Source of the DNA: an uncultured Gammaproteobacteria bacterium
Lineage (GTDB): Bacteria; Patescibacteriota; Patescibacteriia; JAHIZJ01
Assembly: GCA_964594455.1 (NCBI GenBank)
Contig: CAZQLY010000001.1
Location: forward strand, 97 to 64,096
DNA length: 64,000 nucleotides
Reading direction: 5' to 3'
Shown: piece after piece, positions 30,345-61,676 of the stretch
Layout: each line of letters starts with the position of its first letter
Numbering within the stretch: the stretch's first letter is position 1
The notes under the pieces: generated by a model
Database searches by the model: none
The model's input: the letters and a program-made list of their open reading frames with translations, nothing else
Told to the model about the DNA's origin: nothing
Translations under genes and position numbers: made by a program

Positions 30345-30897
30345 AGGCCTTAAGAAGACCGGATGGTTGCTCCATTGTGTGTAATAAGCGATGGGGAGGA
30401 AAGTCCGAACACCCCTGCGTTTTTCAAGGCGTAGGAGCATGGCACCTTCGAAAAGAAGGCGGAAATAAGCAAAGGATACAAAAAGTTCTATAGACTTTTT
30501 GGATTCTAACCAAGCCCAGGGAAAGTGTCACAGAGACTATACCGCTCTCCTTTCCGTTAATGACTTGGCGGATTGGACAGTAAGGGTGAAAAGAGTGGGC
30601 CCACCTAAGCGTGGGATAGCTCGCTTCGGCGGGTAAAGTAAGAGCCCACAGGTTCGGTTAGTAATAACCGAATGTGACAAACCCTGCCTGGTGCAAGACC
30701 GAGTAGGCCCCGACCGTTAAGGCCAGGGGCGGGTAGGTTGCTAGAGCCCCGCAGCAATGTTGGGCCCAGATAGATGACCATCCACCTACGCCCTTCGGGT
30801 TTCGGCGGACGCAGTCCAATAATTTAAGGACAGCGTCACTCGAAGCTCGGAGAGCGTAGAGTGACAGAATTCGGCTTATAGGTCTTCTTAAGGCATT
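30345..30897 (+). ncRNA. rnpB: RNase P RNA (bacterial type), unusually long (about 550 nt)
   Basis: P4/CR-I GGAGGAAAGUCCGAACAC. AGGGUGAAA.G...GGGCCCACC. CAGAUAGAUGACCAUCCAC. ACAGAAUUCGGCUUAUAGGUC. P1 pairing 30347-60 with 30881-94. Confidence 0.8.
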
Positions 30898-47585: not shown

Positions 47586-47661
47586 TGGAGCCGATGGTCG
47601 GAATCGAACCGACAACCTCTCCCTTACGAAGGGATTGCTCTACCAATTGAGCTACATCGGC
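47586..47661 (-). tRNA. tRNA-Thr (anticodon CGU)
   Basis: Cloverleaf read by hand. D-arm UAGCUCAAUUGGUAGAGC, anticodon loop UUCGUAA, T-arm GGUUCGAUUCC. CCA encoded. Confidence 0.85.
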
Positions 47662-48984: not shown

Positions 48985-49058
48985 TGGAGCGGGATACGAG
49001 ACTCGAACTCGCCTCTCTTGCTTGGGAAGCAAGCGTACTACCCCTGTACTAATCCCGC
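48985..49058 (-). tRNA. tRNA-Gly (anticodon CCC)
   Basis: Anticodon arm CUUGC-UUCCCAA-GCAAG. T-arm GGUUCGAGUCUCG. CCA encoded. Confidence 0.85.
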
Positions 49059-51997: not shown

Positions 51998-52068
51998 CTG
52001 CCGGACCAGGATTCGAACCTGGATAGCCGCCTTCAAAGGGCGGAGTCCTACCGTTAGACGATCCGGCA
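51998..52068 (-). tRNA. tRNA-Gln (anticodon UUG)
   Basis: U1-A72, G73. Anticodon arm CCGCC-CUUUGAA-GGCGG. T-arm CCAGG-UUCGAAU-CCUGG. CCA not encoded. Confidence 0.8.
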
Positions 52069-53597: not shown

Positions 53598-53670
53598 TCC
53601 GGGATAGTTTAATTGGTAAAACCCTGCACTGTTAATGCAGTGACTCCAGGTTCAAGTCCTGGTCCCGGAG
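53598..53670 (+). tRNA. tRNA-Asn (anticodon GUU)
   Basis: Acceptor UCCGGGA/UCCCGGA. Anticodon loop CUGUUAA. T-arm CCAGG-UUCAAGU-CCUGG. Discriminator G. CCA not encoded. Confidence 0.85.
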
Positions 53671-55353: not shown

Positions 55354-55476
55354 TTGAGAAAATTGTTCATTCATTGAAAAGCGACCTAATTTCGGCCGCT
55401 TTTTTTTATTTCTTGATTTAAAGTGTAATATTTCATATAATTTAAGAAGAGTATTAAGCCTTTTATTAAAAAACTT

Positions 55477-58400
55477 ATGAAAAAAGCGACCTGGTTAAAA
55501 ATTATTCCAGCCATTGCCTTAGTAGCTCTTTTGGGGCTATTTTTTTATCTTTATGAGCCAGACACTAAAACCACTGAGCCGGGAGACAAACCATTCGTGC
55601 CAGTCAGTATTGAAAACGCTGAAGGCAATTTCAAGCTAACTGCAGAATCTCAAGATAGTCTGGGCATAGAGCCGGACACCAAATTTATCCTGACTAGTCA
55701 GGAAGATGTTTCTAAATCAGAGGTAGAAGAAAGCATAGCTGTTGTTCCGGCTCTAGACTTTGAAGTAAAGGAAACATCAGAAAACAACTTTGAAATAATT
55801 CCGACAGCCTCGTTGACCGAGAACCAGATTTATAAATTTTCTATCGGTACAACAGTAGACGGCCAGGCTTCAGTTGCTTTAGCGGCTGAGGAAGAAACGG
55901 ACGTTACAGAATATCGTTGGGCTTATCAGGTCAAGAAAAACGTGAAGATTACCGGTACGCTGCCGCGTGATAAGGGCACTGGTGTCCCAACCAATTCTGG
56001 AATTGAAGCGACTTTCTCTACAGACACCTTCTATGACTATGATCAGTATTTTGAAATTATGCCTGATGTAAATGGCACTTTTGAAAAGCATAAGAGAACA
56101 GCAGTTTTTGTTCCAGAGGCATTGGAGTCCGATACCTTATACACAGTTACCATCAAAGCTGGTTTGCCATTTGATGGCACTGATGATGTATTGGCTGATG
56201 ATTATACGTTTAAATTTGAGACTACCTCCGGAAGGCAGGCTGGTTATAATTATGATTATTTCTCTTTTCGTGATTCAGTCTATGATTATACTGATCAGTC
56301 AGAACCAGTGCTAGAAGTATATAATTATCCTAAAGATACTGAGCGAGAGTTCACGGTCTATCAGTATCCCAATTATGACACTTTTGCCAATGCTTTATCA
56401 GACTATGTTCAGTATCCAGCCTGGGCGTACTATTCGAGAAATACTTTTACCACATCGACTGATGGACTGACTCAGGTTTTGAATTTCAAGGCTGTGCCAG
56501 AAACTTACCAGTATCGCTATTATGTGGTTTTGCCCAGTACTCTGGAAAATGGATACTATTTGATTGAGACAAAAACCTCTGATCAAACCATTCAGTCATG
56601 GATCCAAGTCAGCGATCAAGCCGCATATTTAAGCGTCAGTAAAATAAACACTTTAGTTTGGTTAAACGATTTAGAGAGCCAGCAGCCGATTGCAGGCGGC
56701 ACAGTAACCATACCTGGGCTTGAGTTGGAAGAAACAACGAATGAGTATGGTATTGCTTTTTTTGAAACTCCGGATGAATTGTCCAGTGATGAACCCGACA
56801 AATCGTATATATTTACTCTAACTGGATCAGATGGGACGAAAACTGTAATTCCTGGTGCCCAGAGCTCGTCATATTACGATTATTCATCAGAAAGCCGCAG
56901 CGACGAATTCTGGCAATATTTGTATGTTGATCGCCCGATTTATCAAAAGTCCGACACAGTAAATTTTTGGGGATTAGCCAAGTTGCGTGGTAGTGAATCA
57001 ATTCCCAGCCAGGCCACGGCCCAGCTTATAGGTTTTGATTATACTAGTTATTATGGTGAAACTACTAATATAGCTGAAACGACAGTCGAGTTAACCGATA
57101 CTGGCACGTATTTAGGTAAGCTATCTTTCCAAAACCTTATTCCCGGCTATTATACCCTTAAGATATTGGTGGATGGGGCAGAAGTTAGCCGATCCAGTGT
57201 TTATATACAAAACTACGTTAAACCCAGCTATATGATAGAGCTGGGTACTGCCAAGAAGGTAATAGTAGAAGATGAGAACAATACGGTTACGGTTAGTTCA
57301 CAGTTTTTTGAAGGCACGCCTGTGCCAAGTGTTGATTTGACCTACAATAGCAGTTTTGGGTCGGGCGGGTTGACCACCGATGAGAATGGTAGTGGATCGT
57401 TTACTTTGACAGCCGATGGAGTATCCAACTATTCCGAAACAGATTATGTCCGGGTTTATGCTGATTCAGCTGAAGCGGCAGATATCAGTTCCGAAGTTCG
57501 CTACCGGGTGTACCCGTCAGATATGTGGCTAGAATATGATTCTGAGGTGGATGAACAAAAAGCCAGCCTGGAGATGGATTTGAATTATTTAGACTTGAAA
57601 GCCATGAACAAGGATGATTATGATCTTTGGAGTGATGAGATTTATTCCGGTCCAGTATCAGATCATAAGATAACTGGTACGGTTAAAAAGGTGGTATACG
57701 ATAAAATTGAGACGGGTCAATATTATGATTTTATCAATAAAGTTACTCGCAAGACCTATCGCTATGATCGACGACTAGAGCCCTACACCAGTTTTGATAT
57801 AACAACTGATACTAATGGCGCGGCATTGTATGAATTCGATGTAGAAAAAGACAGTTCTTATGAAATAGAGACTAGTTATACTGATGATAACAACAGAACA
57901 GTAACCAGCAAACATTTCCTTTGGAGCGGTTATCGTTATTACGATGCCGATTATTCTGATATGGTGCGACTTCAGAATACCGACGAAGATACGATTTATA
58001 GTTTGGATGACCCGGTAAACTTTGCTTTCCTAAAAGGTGATGAACTGTTACCAGACAATGAACAGCCCAATAATTATTTGTATTTCCAAGCCAAAGCCGG
58101 TATCCAAGAATATTGGGTTAATCCGTCATCCAGCTACTCCTTTGATTTTTCTGCCAGCAATATTCCCAATACCTATGTTTATGGTGTGTGGTTTGATGGA
58201 TCCAATTATTCAGCCACGGATTACTATTACTACAGCTATGGGTACGGGATCCAGTACGATACCAGTGATAGTGAAATCAATGTAGAAGTTTCTTCTGACC
58301 AAAGTCAGTACCAACCAGGGGAAGAAGTAACTTTGACCGTAAATACATCTGATTCCAACAGCCAGCCTATATCCGCCCGAGTGAATTTAAATCTAGTTGA

Positions 58401-60792
58401 TGAGGCTATTTATGCTTTGCGTGATGAAGCTGTTGATCCTTTGTCTGCCGTGTACTCTAATGTTTCTTCAGGAATATTGCGTACTTATATTTCCCATGAA
58501 GAAAGCGATCTGGCGGCACCGATGGCTGAGCGCGGAGGGTGTTTTCTCGAGGGGACGCAGGTTTTGATGGGTAATGGCGGAAGTAGACCGATAGAAGAAA
58601 TTTCAGTCGGTGAATATGTCTGGACCAGATTCTCTCCGTCAAACGATCAGCTAGTCACGGCACGCGTTGCTGAAAGGTTTGAGCACATTGTAGACACGGT
58701 GATTGCAGTCAACAATGAGTTGTTCATAACACCTAACCATATACTTTGGCTCAATGGTAACTGGCAGCCAGCCGAGAATATCAAACCGGGCGATAAGTTA
58801 GTCAACAATAAGGGTGAGACCGTGTTAGTCAAAACGGTAGAATACCAAAAGGGATTATTTAAGGTCTACAATCTCCACATTGATGATCAACACACTTTTT
58901 TTGCCTCAGGTATTTACGTGCATAATGACAAGGCTGGTGCCAGGAAGAATTTCCAGGACGCAGCGCTGTTTGAAGAAGTTGAGACGGGCCTCCTCGGGCA
59001 AGCCACTACAACTTTCACATTGCCTGACAATATCACTTCCTGGCGCGTGACCGCTCAAGGCATCAGCGATGATTTGGATGTTGGCAGTACCACCGAATTA
59101 ATACCGGTAACGCTACCACTCTTTGTTGAAACAAATATCGCCCGTGAGTATTTAACGGGGGATCAGCCGATAATAAAAGTCTATGGTTATGGCAGTGATT
59201 TGGAGTCGGGTGACGCTGTAGATTTAAATGTCAGCATTGAGGACCTAAATTACGATACGACGCAAAACGGTCAGGCTTTTGAACCATCCAGTTTTGAACT
59301 GCCGGAAATGACTAGCGGAGTTTATGACGTGTATATTACTGCCACGGCTGGAAATCAAGAGGACACAATTTTGAAGAAGCTGAGCGTGATTGATAGTCAT
59401 TGGGAAAAAGAATCAGCGAATTATTATACCCTAGAAGAGGGTTTGCAGATTGAAGGCGCCGATGACCGACAAACAACACTGTTGTTTATGGATCGCAACC
59501 GAGGATACTTTTATCGCGATTTGTTAAGACTGTATTACAGCTGGGGCGAACGGGTAGACCAAAAATACGCCAAGAAATTAGCTGCGGAGTACATGAATAC
59601 ATATTTTGAAGATAGCTATAATGTTGAAGATTTTGATGGATCAGTTTATCAGACATCAGATGGTGGAATTTCCATCCTGCCGTATTCGTCATCAGAATTT
59701 GAGTTGTCAGCGCATTTAGCAAATCTGGCACCTGGAGAATTTGATGCCAGCGCTCTGACCAACTATTTCACTAACTTTGTAACGAGTGAAGATGCAAATC
59801 TGGAAGAAGTAATTATTGCTTATTACGGTTTGGCAAATTTAGGTGAGGCGGTATTAAATCAAGTTATCCAGATATACGAAAATAATGAGATCAGCGATCA
59901 ACTAAAATTGTATGTGGCCCTGACTCTGGACAAATTAGGGGCTGGTGAATATGCCCGGGTGATTTACAACGATGTTGTTAACCGGCTGGCTGAGACTCAA
60001 GATCCTTATATCAGATTACTTCTAGGAGAAGATGAAGATGATTATTTGAAATACACAGTTTTGGCGTCTATTTTAGCCAACAGTCTTTCGACAGATGAAG
60101 AGAGTGGTTTATATGAGTATGTCAGAAGCAAATGGACTGAGGAAATTTTGATAAACGTTGAAAAATTGATTTATCTACGACAGGCCTTACCCACTGCCGA
60201 AGCCGGACCCGTCAGCTTCAAATACACCGTTGGTAGTCGCTCGGATTTAGTTACCCTAGAGAAATACAAGAAATACAAACTATTATTGTCTCCAGATGAA
60301 CTGGATCAAATAGAGTTTTCTGACATTTCTGGAACTGTGGGTGTGATCAGTTATTATACCGAGCCGGCTAATCCTGATTTGGTGACGGTTGACAATCAAG
60401 TAGGTATATCACGATCCTATCAGGTTGTTGGTGGCGATAGAACTACCAATTTTTCTGAGGGTGACATAGTGCTGGTTACTCTAGATCACCAGATTAATAA
60501 TAACGCCATTGACGAGACATACCAAGTGACTGACTATCTGCCCAGTGGCTTAACTGTGATTAGCGAACCATTCTCTCGACTTCAGTACGGAGCCTATGAA
60601 GCCAATTGGCCTTATTTGATTGATGGACAGAAAGTCGCATTCCGGGCTTGGAAAGGCTGGGATAAATTGATCAAGTATTATGCTAGGGTAAATAACCAAG
60701 GCGAGTTCATGACTGATCCAGTGATGATCCAGGGTTACAGAGTGAAAGACAGTCTCAATATGTCGGATACTGTCACAGTAACCATAGAATGA
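55477..60792 (+). CDS. alpha-2-macroglobulin-like (MG-domain) protein with mini-intein/Hint (BIL-type) domain inserted at the bait-region position; membrane anchored
   Basis: 1771 aa. N-terminal TM. A2M hallmark RKNFQDAALFEE...LPDNITSWRV downstream of the bait region. No CxEQ thioester. Hint blocks CFLEGTQVLMGNG, TPNH, VYNLHIDDQHTFFASGIYVHN at nt 58540-58926. +1 residue is Asp. Confidence 0.7.
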   Translation: MKKATWLKIIPAIALVALLGLFFYLYEPDTKTTEPGDKPFVPVSIENAEGNFKLTAESQDSLGIEPDTKFILTSQEDVSKSEVEESIAVVPALDFEVKETSENNFEIIPTASLTENQIYKFSIGTTVDGQASVALAAEEETDVTEYRWAYQVKKNVKITGTLPRDKGTGVPTNSGIEATFSTDTFYDYDQYFEIMPDVNGTFEKHKRTAVFVPEALESDTLYTVTIKAGLPFDGTDDVLADDYTFKFETTSGRQAGYNYDYFSFRDSVYDYTDQSEPVLEVYNYPKDTEREFTVYQYPNYDTFANALSDYVQYPAWAYYSRNTFTTSTDGLTQVLNFKAVPETYQYRYYVVLPSTLENGYYLIETKTSDQTIQSWIQVSDQAAYLSVSKINTLVWLNDLESQQPIAGGTVTIPGLELEETTNEYGIAFFETPDELSSDEPDKSYIFTLTGSDGTKTVIPGAQSSSYYDYSSESRSDEFWQYLYVDRPIYQKSDTVNFWGLAKLRGSESIPSQATAQLIGFDYTSYYGETTNIAETTVELTDTGTYLGKLSFQNLIPGYYTLKILVDGAEVSRSSVYIQNYVKPSYMIELGTAKKVIVEDENNTVTVSSQFFEGTPVPSVDLTYNSSFGSGGLTTDENGSGSFTLTADGVSNYSETDYVRVYADSAEAADISSEVRYRVYPSDMWLEYDSEVDEQKASLEMDLNYLDLKAMNKDDYDLWSDEIYSGPVSDHKITGTVKKVVYDKIETGQYYDFINKVTRKTYRYDRRLEPYTSFDITTDTNGAALYEFDVEKDSSYEIETSYTDDNNRTVTSKHFLWSGYRYYDADYSDMVRLQNTDEDTIYSLDDPVNFAFLKGDELLPDNEQPNNYLYFQAKAGIQEYWVNPSSSYSFDFSASNIPNTYVYGVWFDGSNYSATDYYYYSYGYGIQYDTSDSEINVEVSSDQSQYQPGEEVTLTVNTSDSNSQPISARVNLNLVDEAIYALRDEAVDPLSAVYSNVSSGILRTYISHEESDLAAPMAERGGCFLEGTQVLMGNGGSRPIEEISVGEYVWTRFSPSNDQLVTARVAERFEHIVDTVIAVNNELFITPNHILWLNGNWQPAENIKPGDKLVNNKGETVLVKTVEYQKGLFKVYNLHIDDQHTFFASGIYVHNDKAGARKNFQDAALFEEVETGLLGQATTTFTLPDNITSWRVTAQGISDDLDVGSTTELIPVTLPLFVETNIAREYLTGDQPIIKVYGYGSDLESGDAVDLNVSIEDLNYDTTQNGQAFEPSSFELPEMTSGVYDVYITATAGNQEDTILKKLSVIDSHWEKESANYYTLEEGLQIEGADDRQTTLLFMDRNRGYFYRDLLRLYYSWGERVDQKYAKKLAAEYMNTYFEDSYNVEDFDGSVYQTSDGGISILPYSSSEFELSAHLANLAPGEFDASALTNYFTNFVTSEDANLEEVIIAYYGLANLGEAVLNQVIQIYENNEISDQLKLYVALTLDKLGAGEYARVIYNDVVNRLAETQDPYIRLLLGEDEDDYLKYTVLASILANSLSTDEESGLYEYVRSKWTEEILINVEKLIYLRQALPTAEAGPVSFKYTVGSRSDLVTLEKYKKYKLLLSPDELDQIEFSDISGTVGVISYYTEPANPDLVTVDNQVGISRSYQVVGGDRTTNFSEGDIVLVTLDHQINNNAIDETYQVTDYLPSGLTVISEPFSRLQYGAYEANWPYLIDGQKVAFRAWKGWDKLIKYYARVNNQGEFMTDPVMIQGYRVKDSLNMSDTVTVTIE

Positions 60793-61676
60793 GGCCAAAT
60801 CGTTCAGTCACTATAACAGTAAGTGCCGCCGCTGTCGCACTAGCGGCTGGTGCTTTCGTATTCTGTCGCTCTGGTGTTAACAGCGAATCGGCTAGTTATA
60901 AATCCCAAGCGTTAAATCCGAGCATGTTTTCAGTTACTGATTTTTTTGCTGAATACGATAACCCTTCTGAAGATGTATGCCATAATTCAATGCTGGGCGG
61001 GATTACCACCCATCATCAGCAAGCTAGTGCCTTGATCGGTCAGTTTTTCAGATGCTTAGCTGTTTCTACCCAACCAGAAACCGTTATTCTAATTGGACCC
61101 AACCATTATCATCAAGGTAGTCGGGGAGTGCTAGTAGCCAGCCAGGCCTGGAATACTACATTTGGAATTGTTGAACCTGACATTGAAAAGATATCAGAAT
61201 TAGCTGAGTCGGATTTAATAGAGATAAATGATTATGTAGTTAGTCAAGACCACGCAGTTGGTTTGCTAGTTCCGTATCTGTCATATTACTTTCCTGAGGC
61301 CAAGGTTGTGCCTTTGTTAATTAATTATAGCGTTAGTGAGTCTCAAGCCGAAAGATTTCAGGAATTCTTATCTCGAGTTATGGATGAAAACACAATAGTT
61401 GTTGGTTCAATAGATTTTTCCCACTATTTAGCCTCAGCTGAGGCGTCTCAGATGGACATTGAAACAGAAAAATTGGTTACAGAATTTAAATTGGATGAAG
61501 TTTACGAATACGGCGATGAACACTATGATACTGCCCCAGGCCTGTATACTATTTTAGCTTTAATGCAAAGACAAAACGCTCGGGCGGAAACGATTGCTCA
61601 CTCAGACACTTCGGCATTTAACGGCGTTTCCAGCTATGTAACCAGTTATTTCAACTGGGTGTTTCTGTCCAAATAA
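60789..61676 (+). CDS. MEMO1/AmmeMemoRadiSam-system-protein-B-like (class III extradiol-dioxygenase fold)
   Basis: GGITTHH...ILIGPNHY..G and DHAVG motifs. Confidence 0.55.
   Translation: MRPNRSVTITVSAAAVALAAGAFVFCRSGVNSESASYKSQALNPSMFSVTDFFAEYDNPSEDVCHNSMLGGITTHHQQASALIGQFFRCLAVSTQPETVILIGPNHYHQGSRGVLVASQAWNTTFGIVEPDIEKISELAESDLIEINDYVVSQDHAVGLLVPYLSYYFPEAKVVPLLINYSVSESQAERFQEFLSRVMDENTIVVGSIDFSHYLASAEASQMDIETEKLVTEFKLDEVYEYGDEHYDTAPGLYTILALMQRQNARAETIAHSDTSAFNGVSSYVTSYFNWVFLSK

Follow-up and report, generated by a model that had tools for sequence, protein, structure and literature searches.

The locus described here raises one question: what does an intein-like domain do in the very loop at which macroglobulins are cut? 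To our knowledge, all known proteins of the alpha-2-macroglobulin (A2M)/TEP superfamily are activated by another protease that cuts a single loop, namely the bait of A2M or the convertase and furin sites of C3, C4 and C5. The gene considered here lies in a window of 64,000 nucleotides (the whole stretch of DNA analysed, from contig CAZQLY010000001.1 of assembly GCA_964594455.1) and encodes a protein, hereafter A2M-Hint, which is a thioester-less and probably surface-anchored A2M, from a Patescibacteria genome, in whose bait loop a Hint domain of the bacterial intein-like (BIL) or PT-HINT type, with its trailing x-Lys, has been inserted and, in our reading, then fixed. A predicted self-cleaving module is found at the activation switch of A2M and complement, with catalytic residues that are intact across a whole bacterial phylum and, if the Hint cleaves, this would be the first autocatalytic member of the A2M/TEP superfamily. 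Two known kinds of protein, the thioester-less bacterial A2M and the BIL/PT-HINT domain, are combined in a way that we could not find described. Indeed, the full-text literature on A2M with Hint, intein or PT-HINT yielded no account of this architecture, in line with what a previous reading of the DNA, made from the sequence only, had supposed.

The A2M Fold and the Missing Thioester

Membership of the A2M/TEP superfamily was indicated by two Pfam models that exceed their curated cut-offs, A2M_BRD (Table 1) and A2M (residues 1163-1235, E 2.8e-9, 37.1 bits for a cut-off of 21). The LPDxITxW block, from which the sequence-only reading had recognized the family, is thus no coincidence, and the motifs RKNF (1156-1159) and LPDNITSWR (1182-1190) are indeed where it had placed them. 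The fold was in accordance with this assignment. An AlphaFold2 model of residues 590-1771, computed from an alignment of 45 sequences, reached a mean predicted local distance difference test score (pLDDT) of 86.7 and displayed a helical TED-like domain (already suspected from the sequence), in keeping with the overall fold of the superfamily (MG ring, CUB, helical TED and C-terminal MG module). Searched against the PDB with Foldseek, this model gave 401 matches at E <= 0.001, the best 50 of which were all A2M, C3, C4, C5, TEP or CD109. Native ECAM (5a42, E 3e-45) ranked first, then Salmonella A2M (4u48, E 1.6e-43), and further matches included C4b/C3, A2ML1, CD109, C5, frog and human A2M, and TEP1. 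The TM-scores were low (0.2-0.4), as expected because multidomain proteins in different conformations are being compared. The strands that follow the bait (R-x-x-F...PD-x-IT-x-W) could be aligned residue by residue to those of CD109 and human A2M.

The thioester of the superfamily is missing, as had been stated from the sequence: the C-x-E-Q motif is absent from the 1771 residues of the query and from all 30 family members checked, and the Pfam TED model found no match in the query. At the start of the helical domain (residues 1357-1362), a motif G-[DE]-R-[VLI]-D-Q is conserved in the columns of the family alignment (G in 29, R in 30, D in 25 and Q in 24 of 30 sequences) and, judged by its position alone rather than by superposition, it may be the degenerate counterpart of G-C-x-E-Q. 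With CxEQ absent and a bait region kept, A2M-Hint corresponds to the type II bacterial A2Ms (PMC5764988); the thioester, pbpC neighbour and lipoprotein signal of type I were all lacking. A lipobox is impossible, because there is no cysteine at the N-terminus. Instead, residues 5-26 probably form a signal-anchor, which would place the protein outside the membrane. The first cysteine of the Hint, Cys1022, is the sole cysteine of the whole protein. Such a composition suits a protein outside the cytoplasm in which stray thiols near a reactive cysteine are avoided. The single-cysteine state was also observed in six close relatives (P0002-P0005, P0007, P0008).

A BIL-Type Hint Domain Within the Bait Loop

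The best Pfam match of the inserted domain is PT-HINT (PF07591; residues 1039-1151, E 9.2e-12, 45.8 bits for a cut-off of 27.7). The Hom_end_hint, Vint, Hint and Intein_splicing models scored under their own Pfam cut-offs; the matches to Hom_end_hint, Vint and Hint_2 begin at residues 1021-1022, and that to the NCBIfam model intein_Cterm covers residues 1129-1150. The complete mini-Hint of BIL type that had been read at the bait position is therefore borne out, together with its motifs: CFLEGTQV starts at C1022 (nt 58540), TPNH occupies residues 1085-1088, and VYNLHIDDQHTFFASGIYVHN ends at N1150 (nt 58926), which makes D1151 the +1 residue. An N-terminal Cys, a block B of the form T-x-x-H and a C-terminal His-Asn define A-type BIL domains (PMC7765530), and all are present here with a non-nucleophilic +1 residue; the Cys, Ser or Thr that class 1 inteins require at +1 is replaced by Asp1151. 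When the family profile was used, the closest solved relative of the Hint was BUBL BIL2 of Tetrahymena (6tmm/6y75, E 6e-17), then the BIL domain of Clostridium thermocellum (2lwy, E 3e-13) and a Streptomyces umbrella-toxin protein (8w20, E 2e-12), with true inteins at E 1e-6 or weaker. The search with the single sequence put the umbrella-toxin protein 8w20 nearest among PDB entries.

The Hint had been described as standing in place of the bait, and this part of the sequence-only reading has to be revised. Compared with 17 Hint-less homologues (1606-1762 aa, 24-36% identical), the domain is a clean insertion of ~131 aa, on both sides of which the flanks align undisturbed. The loop reads ...SH(x8-12)AE.GG-GG.G.R.DF.D... 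in the Hint-less proteins and ...AE.GG-[C...VHN-x-K]-GG.R.(D/N)F.D... in the Hint-bearing ones, where the linker before the Hint is variable except for SH...AE.GG. Since the Hint-less relatives have the same short loop, the event is an insertion (GG|...|GG) rather than a replacement, the Hint having been added to a short Gly-rich bait loop. In the AlphaFold2 model, the Hint itself (model residues 433-561) was predicted with mean pLDDT values of ~78-93 per 10-residue block, and values <50 were restricted to its flanks, i.e., residues 1005-1021 before it and 1151-1153 after it.

The exact position of the insertion could be set against solved structures. In an alignment to human A2M (6tav, precursor numbering), A1155 corresponds to residue 731, hence R1156 to Arg732, and the family profile resumes after the Hint at human A2M residue 729. 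The bond between Asn1150 and Asp1151 lies five residues upstream of R1156, where the flexible bait ends on its C-terminal side. Human A2M has its bait-region domain (BRD) inserted between strands 4 and 5 of MG6 (PMC9181621). On the other side of the Hint, profile positions 46-131 align with the end of the C5 beta chain (residues 549-629). By homology, the insertion site would be the position taken in C3, C4 and C5 by the chain-processing linker and the anaphylatoxin (ANA) domain. C3, C4 and C5 are cleaved at the equivalent site by furin and convertases.

Invariant Catalytic Residues and a Conserved Lysine

Residues were counted over the 155 proteins with the full architecture, nearly all of which represent clusters at 50% identity. 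Cys1, the block-B His, the penultimate His and the terminal Asn were found in every one of them, Phe2 of the Hint in 154, the block-B Thr in 153, and Gly at -1 in 145. The mean column identity of the Hint (0.439) equals that of MG6/MG7, the best-conserved A2M segment, compared with 0.292 for the rest of the protein, and its mean pairwise identity is 0.44 vs 0.31 for the host. Such conservation suggests an intact catalytic apparatus and strong selection on the Hint. Its length is 127-131 aa in 136/136 full-length members, so that no homing endonuclease is present in any of these.

The +1 position behaves differently. Asp predominates (68 proteins), followed by Glu (27), Ala (20), Gln (19), Ser (9), Asn (5), Lys (3), Thr (2), Ile (1) and Cys (1). 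It is thus non-nucleophilic (D/E/A/Q/N/K/I) in 143 proteins, and Ser, Thr or Cys in 12, which means that Asp1151 of the query had not been misread. By contrast, a lysine is found at +1 to +3 in 154/155 members (at +2 in 116, at +3 in 35, at +1 in 3; K1152, nt 58930-58932, in the query) and in the equivalent linker of 0/17 Hint-less homologues. This residue is a candidate nucleophile for isopeptide ligation. The view that it is an adaptation specific to A2M was considered and rejected: the sequence HN-K also occurs in related non-A2M and tandem-Hint proteins, which makes the lysine a trait of this Hint subfamily. The tandem proteins P0193, P0194 and P0195 are head-to-tail arrays of up to ~8 Hint copies separated by the spacers K-G-G or K-G (...VHN-KGG-CF...).

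Distribution and History of the Architecture

A profile covering BRD, Hint and MG7 was searched against 1.84 billion cluster representatives. Among the 150 matches listed, almost all were 1700-1900 aa long and matched all 373 profile positions in one stretch. Taken together with the first search, this gave at least 155 proteins with the full A2M-Hint architecture, encoded by at least 136 GTDB species (contigs with one genome per species), and the protein is no rarity. Informatively named records with the architecture are nearly all from Patescibacteria. Of the 136 loci, 80 were kept, and their labels are Magasanik-, Peregrini-, Peri-, Uhr-, Parcu-, Nomura-, Gracili-, Dojka-, Collier- or Saccharibacteria, or 'Patescibacteria group'. 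Far from being a one-off, A2M-Hint is what a large family of Patescibacteria proteins normally looks like. Members are annotated automatically at NCBI as either 'polymorphic toxin-type HINT domain-containing protein' or 'alpha-2-macroglobulin family protein'. It is a large and widespread surface protein of episymbiotic bacteria of the candidate phyla radiation (CPR), so far discussed merely as a generic 'protease-inhibiting' A2M (PMC8080830); the A2M-domain surface proteins of CPR have been proposed as a defence against host proteases, with the Hint unmentioned (PMC8080830; PMC9793634). Several loci (L006, L012, L013, L018, L020, L028, L052, L058 and others) belong to third-party annotation (TPA) metagenome-assembled genomes labelled 'uncultured Gammaproteobacteria', 'Pseudomonadales', 'Flavobacteriales' or 'Candidatus Nanoarchaeia'. 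We suspect that such non-CPR labels reflect placeholder or mis-binned taxonomy rather than a true occurrence outside CPR.

Homologues with and without the insertion, the comparison which could tell a mobile element from a fixed one, were available (155 and 17 proteins, respectively), and among them the Hint co-diverges with its host. Its identity tracks that of the host, from 0.42 where hosts are <0.3 identical up to 0.77 where they are >0.6 identical. No pairs with conspicuously similar Hints in divergent hosts were seen, and the nearest neighbour of a host ranks third (median) among Hints. Base composition is ordinary, with a GC content of 0.434 for the Hint vs 0.419 +/- 0.026 for windows of the gene, and a third-position GC content (GC3) within range. 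Co-divergence and unremarkable GC together fit an old insertion inherited with the gene. A recent horizontal acquisition of the Hint was rejected in view of the ordinary GC and GC3, of Hint-host co-divergence and of P0136, whose nearest relative is Hint-less and whose own Hint is only 50% identical to any other.

The presence of the Hint nevertheless varies within the family. The Hint-less protein P0022 is 48-51% identical to the Hint-bearing P0136, and <=35% identical to the other Hint-bearing proteins. As the Hint of P0136 shares <=50% identity with every other Hint, it is simpler to suppose that the P0022 lineage lost its copy. A single gain with a monophyletic Hint clade was unsupported, 11/17 Hint-less proteins being nested, in several groups, in the Hint-bearing clade of a neighbour-joining tree. 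Because this tree is distance-based and has no bootstrap, P0022/P0136 is the only firm nested case.

Proposed Self-Nicking of the Bait Loop and Its Alternatives

From a mechanistic point of view, we propose that the Hint acts as a BIL/PT-HINT autoprocessing domain which nicks the bait loop from within after export, yielding a two-chain macroglobulin, and we assign to this reading a probability of about 0.5. The protein would be exported and then fold. Cys1022, helped by T1085 and H1088, would perform an N-to-S acyl shift at Gly1021-Cys1022, and Asn1150 would cyclise with the aid of H1149, breaking the Asn1150-Asp1151 bond. For want of a +1 nucleophile, the 14.6-kDa Hint would mainly be excised with no canonical ligation to follow, in line with reports that BIL domains lacking this nucleophile 'produce predominantly cleaved products' (PMC7664689; PMC7765530). 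The bait loop would thereby be cut internally and a new N-terminus, D-K-A-G-A-R..., exposed five residues before R1156. [quoted passage not shown] The expected product is a membrane-anchored N-terminal chain of ~115 kDa and a C-terminal chain of ~70 kDa which would stay associated, and the two chains should be interlocked because, by homology, the strands of MG6 come from both sides of the cut. Such a product would resemble processed C3/C4 and bait-cleaved MagD. The latter is a thioester-less type II A2M in which bait cleavage is followed by non-covalent protease trapping; in vivo, processing yields a ~100-kDa form, and its bait-cleaved chains are of 91 and 74 kDa (PMC5764988). The function of A2M-Hint cleavage could be an autoproteolytic maturation or activation at the place where prey proteases cut other A2Ms. 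If so, the family would provide a natural experiment on how the cutting of a loop drives conformational change.

Four observations weigh against this proposal. A constitutive self-cut would leave the trap 'sprung', which conflicts with protease trapping unless cleavage is conditional or the two-chain form works. The existence of close Hint-less relatives such as P0022 means that the scaffold can perform its basic function without the Hint. The flanks brought together after excision (…GG and xKGG.R) resemble an uninterrupted loop, as a splicing element would leave them. Lastly, simple cleavage would leave the near-invariant lysine at +2/+3 without a role.

The last two of these observations make an amine-mediated ligation a serious rival, owing to the conserved lysine and to the intein-like 'scarless' junction. 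In this scheme, the alpha-amine of the +1 residue or the epsilon-amine of the lysine (+2/+3) would attack the Gly-Cys thioester and rejoin the two halves, to give a single-chain A2M like the Hint-less homologues, possibly with an isopeptide bond in the bait loop; the Hint would then be an intervening element, either tolerated and selfish or used as a conditional switch. It would account for the cleanness of the insertion, for a junction (AE.GG plus xKGG.R) that is similar after removal to uninterrupted loops, for the variable presence of the Hint among related proteins, and for a lysine that nearly all Hint-bearing loops possess, that all 17 Hint-less ones lack, and that follows HN in tandem-Hint proteins as well. 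Precedents exist for the chemistry. BUBL BIL2, the best solved match of the profile, makes a bond between a Lys(epsilon) and a C-terminus, i.e., an isopeptide bond (PMC8616854), BIL domains have been reported to ligate without a +1 nucleophile (PMC7664689), and a paper cited there, Aranko et al. (2013), refers in its title to BIL ligation 'without nucleophilic side chains'. The statement of the sequence-only reading that canonical splicing looks impossible is consequently right as regards the absent +1 nucleophile, but splicing as such may yet occur in view of these reports of BIL ligation (PMC7664689; PMC8616854). Several points nonetheless tell against ligation: cleavage products are what BIL domains are mostly reported to give (PMC7664689), no member has a homing endonuclease, and the site is a variable Gly-rich surface loop rather than a conserved active site. 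Moreover, the Hint is more conserved than its host and co-diverges with it, as a parasite that decays or moves would not be expected to, and its composition gives no hint of a recent transfer. On balance, we hold ligation to be rather unlikely, though worth keeping in mind.

The same thioester might also serve as a substitute for the lost CxEQ. It could be resolved either by the lysine at +2/+3, which would staple the bait loop through an isopeptide bond, or by an amine of a protease or of the envelope, which would mean covalent capture. We regard this substitution as improbable, although the idea stays alive because the sole cysteine of the protein is a thioester-forming one, in a family that has lost CxEQ. 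More doubtful still is the narrower form of it, in which an external amine (a protease lysine or the envelope) intercepts the Gly1021-Cys1022 thioester and so becomes covalently bound to the anchored N-terminal half. It would explain why a family devoid of CxEQ has, in the query and six close relatives, no other cysteine than this one, and it would use the N-extein ending in Gly-Gly that most members have. BUBL BIL2 indeed conjugates its N-extein to the lysines of various substrates without ATP (PMC8616854), and the bait loop, which houses the Hint, is where a prey protease would dock. However, the Hint-less relatives persist without any thioester, the Gly-Gly is no adaptation to the Hint since it is also found in Hint-less loops, and the invariant C-terminal His-Asn implies a C-terminal cleavage for which this model has no need. 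Were it nevertheless true, covalent tagging would have been invented a second time, independently and from an intein, within the complement/A2M scaffold.

A role of the canonical PT-HINT kind, i.e., release of the 620 C-terminal residues (MG7, CUB, TED-like and MG8) from the anchored N-terminal half as a diffusible effector, is suggested by the best Pfam match, by the umbrella-toxin protein found nearest with the single sequence and by the N-terminal anchor. We consider it very unlikely. The C-terminal half is a conserved A2M module common to the Hint-less homologues and no polymorphic toxin, the downstream gene is Memo-like and no immunity-like gene is evident, and, by homology to human A2M, MG6 is completed by strands that follow the insertion, so that the chains should remain interlocked. 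For this last reason, the release of the N-terminal half which the sequence-only reading had envisaged is unlikely as well (PMC9181621). Least credible of all is a catalytically silent Hint that only plugs the structure or is itself the bait: it would occupy the position of ANA, which acts as a structural wedge in C3 structures, but all four catalytic positions are invariant in 155/155 proteins that share on average only ~31% identity outside the Hint.

Comparison With Known Systems

Among bacterial A2Ms, MagD of P. aeruginosa and YfaS of E. coli are the closest in type, with a multi-MG A2M fold, a bait loop, no CxEQ and a membrane-associated location on the extracytoplasmic side. The relation to YfaS is nonetheless remote in sequence (YfaS-named matches are 21-22% identical, E 1e-13 to 1e-15). 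A2M-Hint also differs from both in belonging to a two-gene unit with a Memo-like gene, without the six-gene mag operon, and in having a single N-terminal anchor in CPR cells of Gram-positive-like type. Lastly, it carries a Hint in its bait loop, and none is reported for MagD or YfaS. The best structural matches, by contrast, were ECAM/YfhM and SaA2M together with eukaryotic A2M, C3, C4 and C5, all of which have the R-x-x-F...PD.IT.W strands in common with A2M-Hint. The insertion site is the A2M bait and, by homology, the linker and anaphylatoxin insertion of C3/C4/C5, where cleavage activates. The differences from type I A2M and C3/C4/C5 are the lack of a thioester, of a pbpC neighbour and of a lipobox, and a cut at the activation site that we propose to be autocatalytic.

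As for the Hint, A-type BIL and PT-HINT domains show the same Cys1, T-x-x-H and His-Asn, no +1 nucleophile, no endonuclease, a size of ~130 aa, and a place within the variable part of a protein that is secreted or found at the surface. PT-HINT domains differ in what follows them: here, it is 620 residues of conserved A2M domains that Hint-less homologues share, and no polymorphic toxin. In contrast to BIL domains, the host is no hypervariable repeat protein, and the Hint occupies one fixed loop of a conserved scaffold, inherited across the phylum. This would be one of few cases in which a BIL/Hint domain has been domesticated at a single fixed site. BUBL BIL2 resembles the query in that lysine-amine chemistry operates in BUBL and a conserved lysine lies near the Hint of the query, which is preceded by Gly-Gly. 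The ubiquitin-like domain that forms the N-extein in BUBL likewise ends in Gly-Gly before the Hint. It differs in being eukaryotic, flanked by ubiquitin-like domains and devoted to the ATP-independent conjugation of a ubiquitin-like protein. The lysine flanking the A2M-Hint domain hints at a non-canonical ligation chemistry. With the mini-inteins of RecA, DnaB and DnaX, the Hint has in common the fold, blocks A, B, F and G, weaker but significant matches, a precise insertion and the existence of Hint-less alleles. In A2M-Hint, however, Cys, Ser or Thr is present at +1 in only 12/155 proteins, the host is a non-housekeeping surface protein with the Hint in a variable loop, and there is no trace of a homing endonuclease. 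In practical terms, the family is a source of ~130-aa Cys1/Asn Hint domains, predicted to act extracellularly.

Gene Features and Genomic Context

The features of the gene and protein are collected in Table 1. The TGA stop codon of the A2M gene overlaps the ATG of the following gene by 4 nt (ATGA), an arrangement which points to translational coupling. The product of this second gene, which likewise begins with a hydrophobic segment, is related to Memo (Pfam E 7.9e-27) and to AmmeMemoRadiSam system protein B (NCBIfam E 1e-31). In 41 of the 75 Hint-bearing loci with enough sequence, a Memo homologue follows directly 3' and on the same strand. It also lies 3' of three Hint-less homologues (L081-L083), with overlapping or abutting codons, and the pairing therefore belongs to the A2M subfamily and not to the Hint. 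No AMMECR1 or radical-SAM partner was found among the nine genes scanned around the A2M gene, whose other neighbours encode a P-type ATPase, EamA and FtsEX. Neither pbpC nor the mag operon was found near the A2M gene. Being without either of these, the A2M-Memo unit is a third genomic type of bacterial A2M, apart from the two already described (PMC5764988).

Table 1. Features of the A2M-Hint gene, its product and its partner gene (nucleotide positions are those of the window)
Feature	Nucleotides	Strand	Residues	Remarks
Promoter-like site TTGATT-17-TATAAT	55413..55441	+		10/12 matches, by consensus alone; ~36 nt 5' of ATG
A2M-Hint protein gene	55477..60792	+	1-1771	Open reading frame, 1771 aa; precursor 199.9 kDa, pI 4.2
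N-terminal hydrophobic segment TWLKIIPAIALVALLGLFFYLY	55489..55554	+	5-26	Signal-anchor role judged by eye
Big_5 (bacterial Ig-like)	55939..56223	+	155-249	Pfam E 2.7e-8, 34.9 bits vs cut-off 23.6
MG2			from 481	Weak Pfam match
MG3			from 579	Weak Pfam match
A2M_BRD	58057..58419	+	861-981	Pfam E 4.3e-8, 34.0 bits vs cut-off 22.7
Residual bait loop/linker ISHEESDLAAPMAERGG	58489..58539	+	1005-1021	pLDDT <50; Gly-Gly end precedes Cys1
Hint (BIL / PT-HINT type)	58540..58926	+	C1022-N1150	129 aa
Hint key residues			C1022; T1085-P-N-H1088; H1149; N1150	Cys1; block B; penultimate His; terminal Asn
C-flank D1151-K1152-A-G-A	58927..58941	+	from 1151	+1 = Asp; conserved Lys at +2
A2M post-bait block R-K-N-F-x-D...L-P-D-N-I-T-S-W-R	58942..59181	+	1156-1235	
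Helical TED-like domain	59473..60198	+	~1333-1574	DSSP on AlphaFold2 model
G1357-E-R-V-D-Q1362	59545..59562	+	1357-1362	Candidate degenerate G-C-x-E-Q counterpart, no Cys; start of helical domain
Memo-like / AmmeMemoRadiSam-B-family gene	60789..61676	+		295 aa

At L081, the locus of the Hint-less P0017, the A2M-Memo pair adjoins genes for a bacterial-microcompartment shell protein, an aldehyde dehydrogenase, and PTAC-domain and SLH-domain proteins, and from this neighbourhood the A2M-Memo subfamily may extend past Patescibacteria. Upstream of the A2M gene, the window contains four tRNA genes (47589-47661, 48988-49058 and 51998-52068 on the minus strand, 53598-53670 on the plus strand), interspersed with genes for a DPBB-domain protein, FtsE, FtsX and EamA. 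Further away, an RNase P RNA of bacterial class A was located at 30351-30894 (+). It spans 544 nt for a model of 367 positions and therefore carries large insertions.

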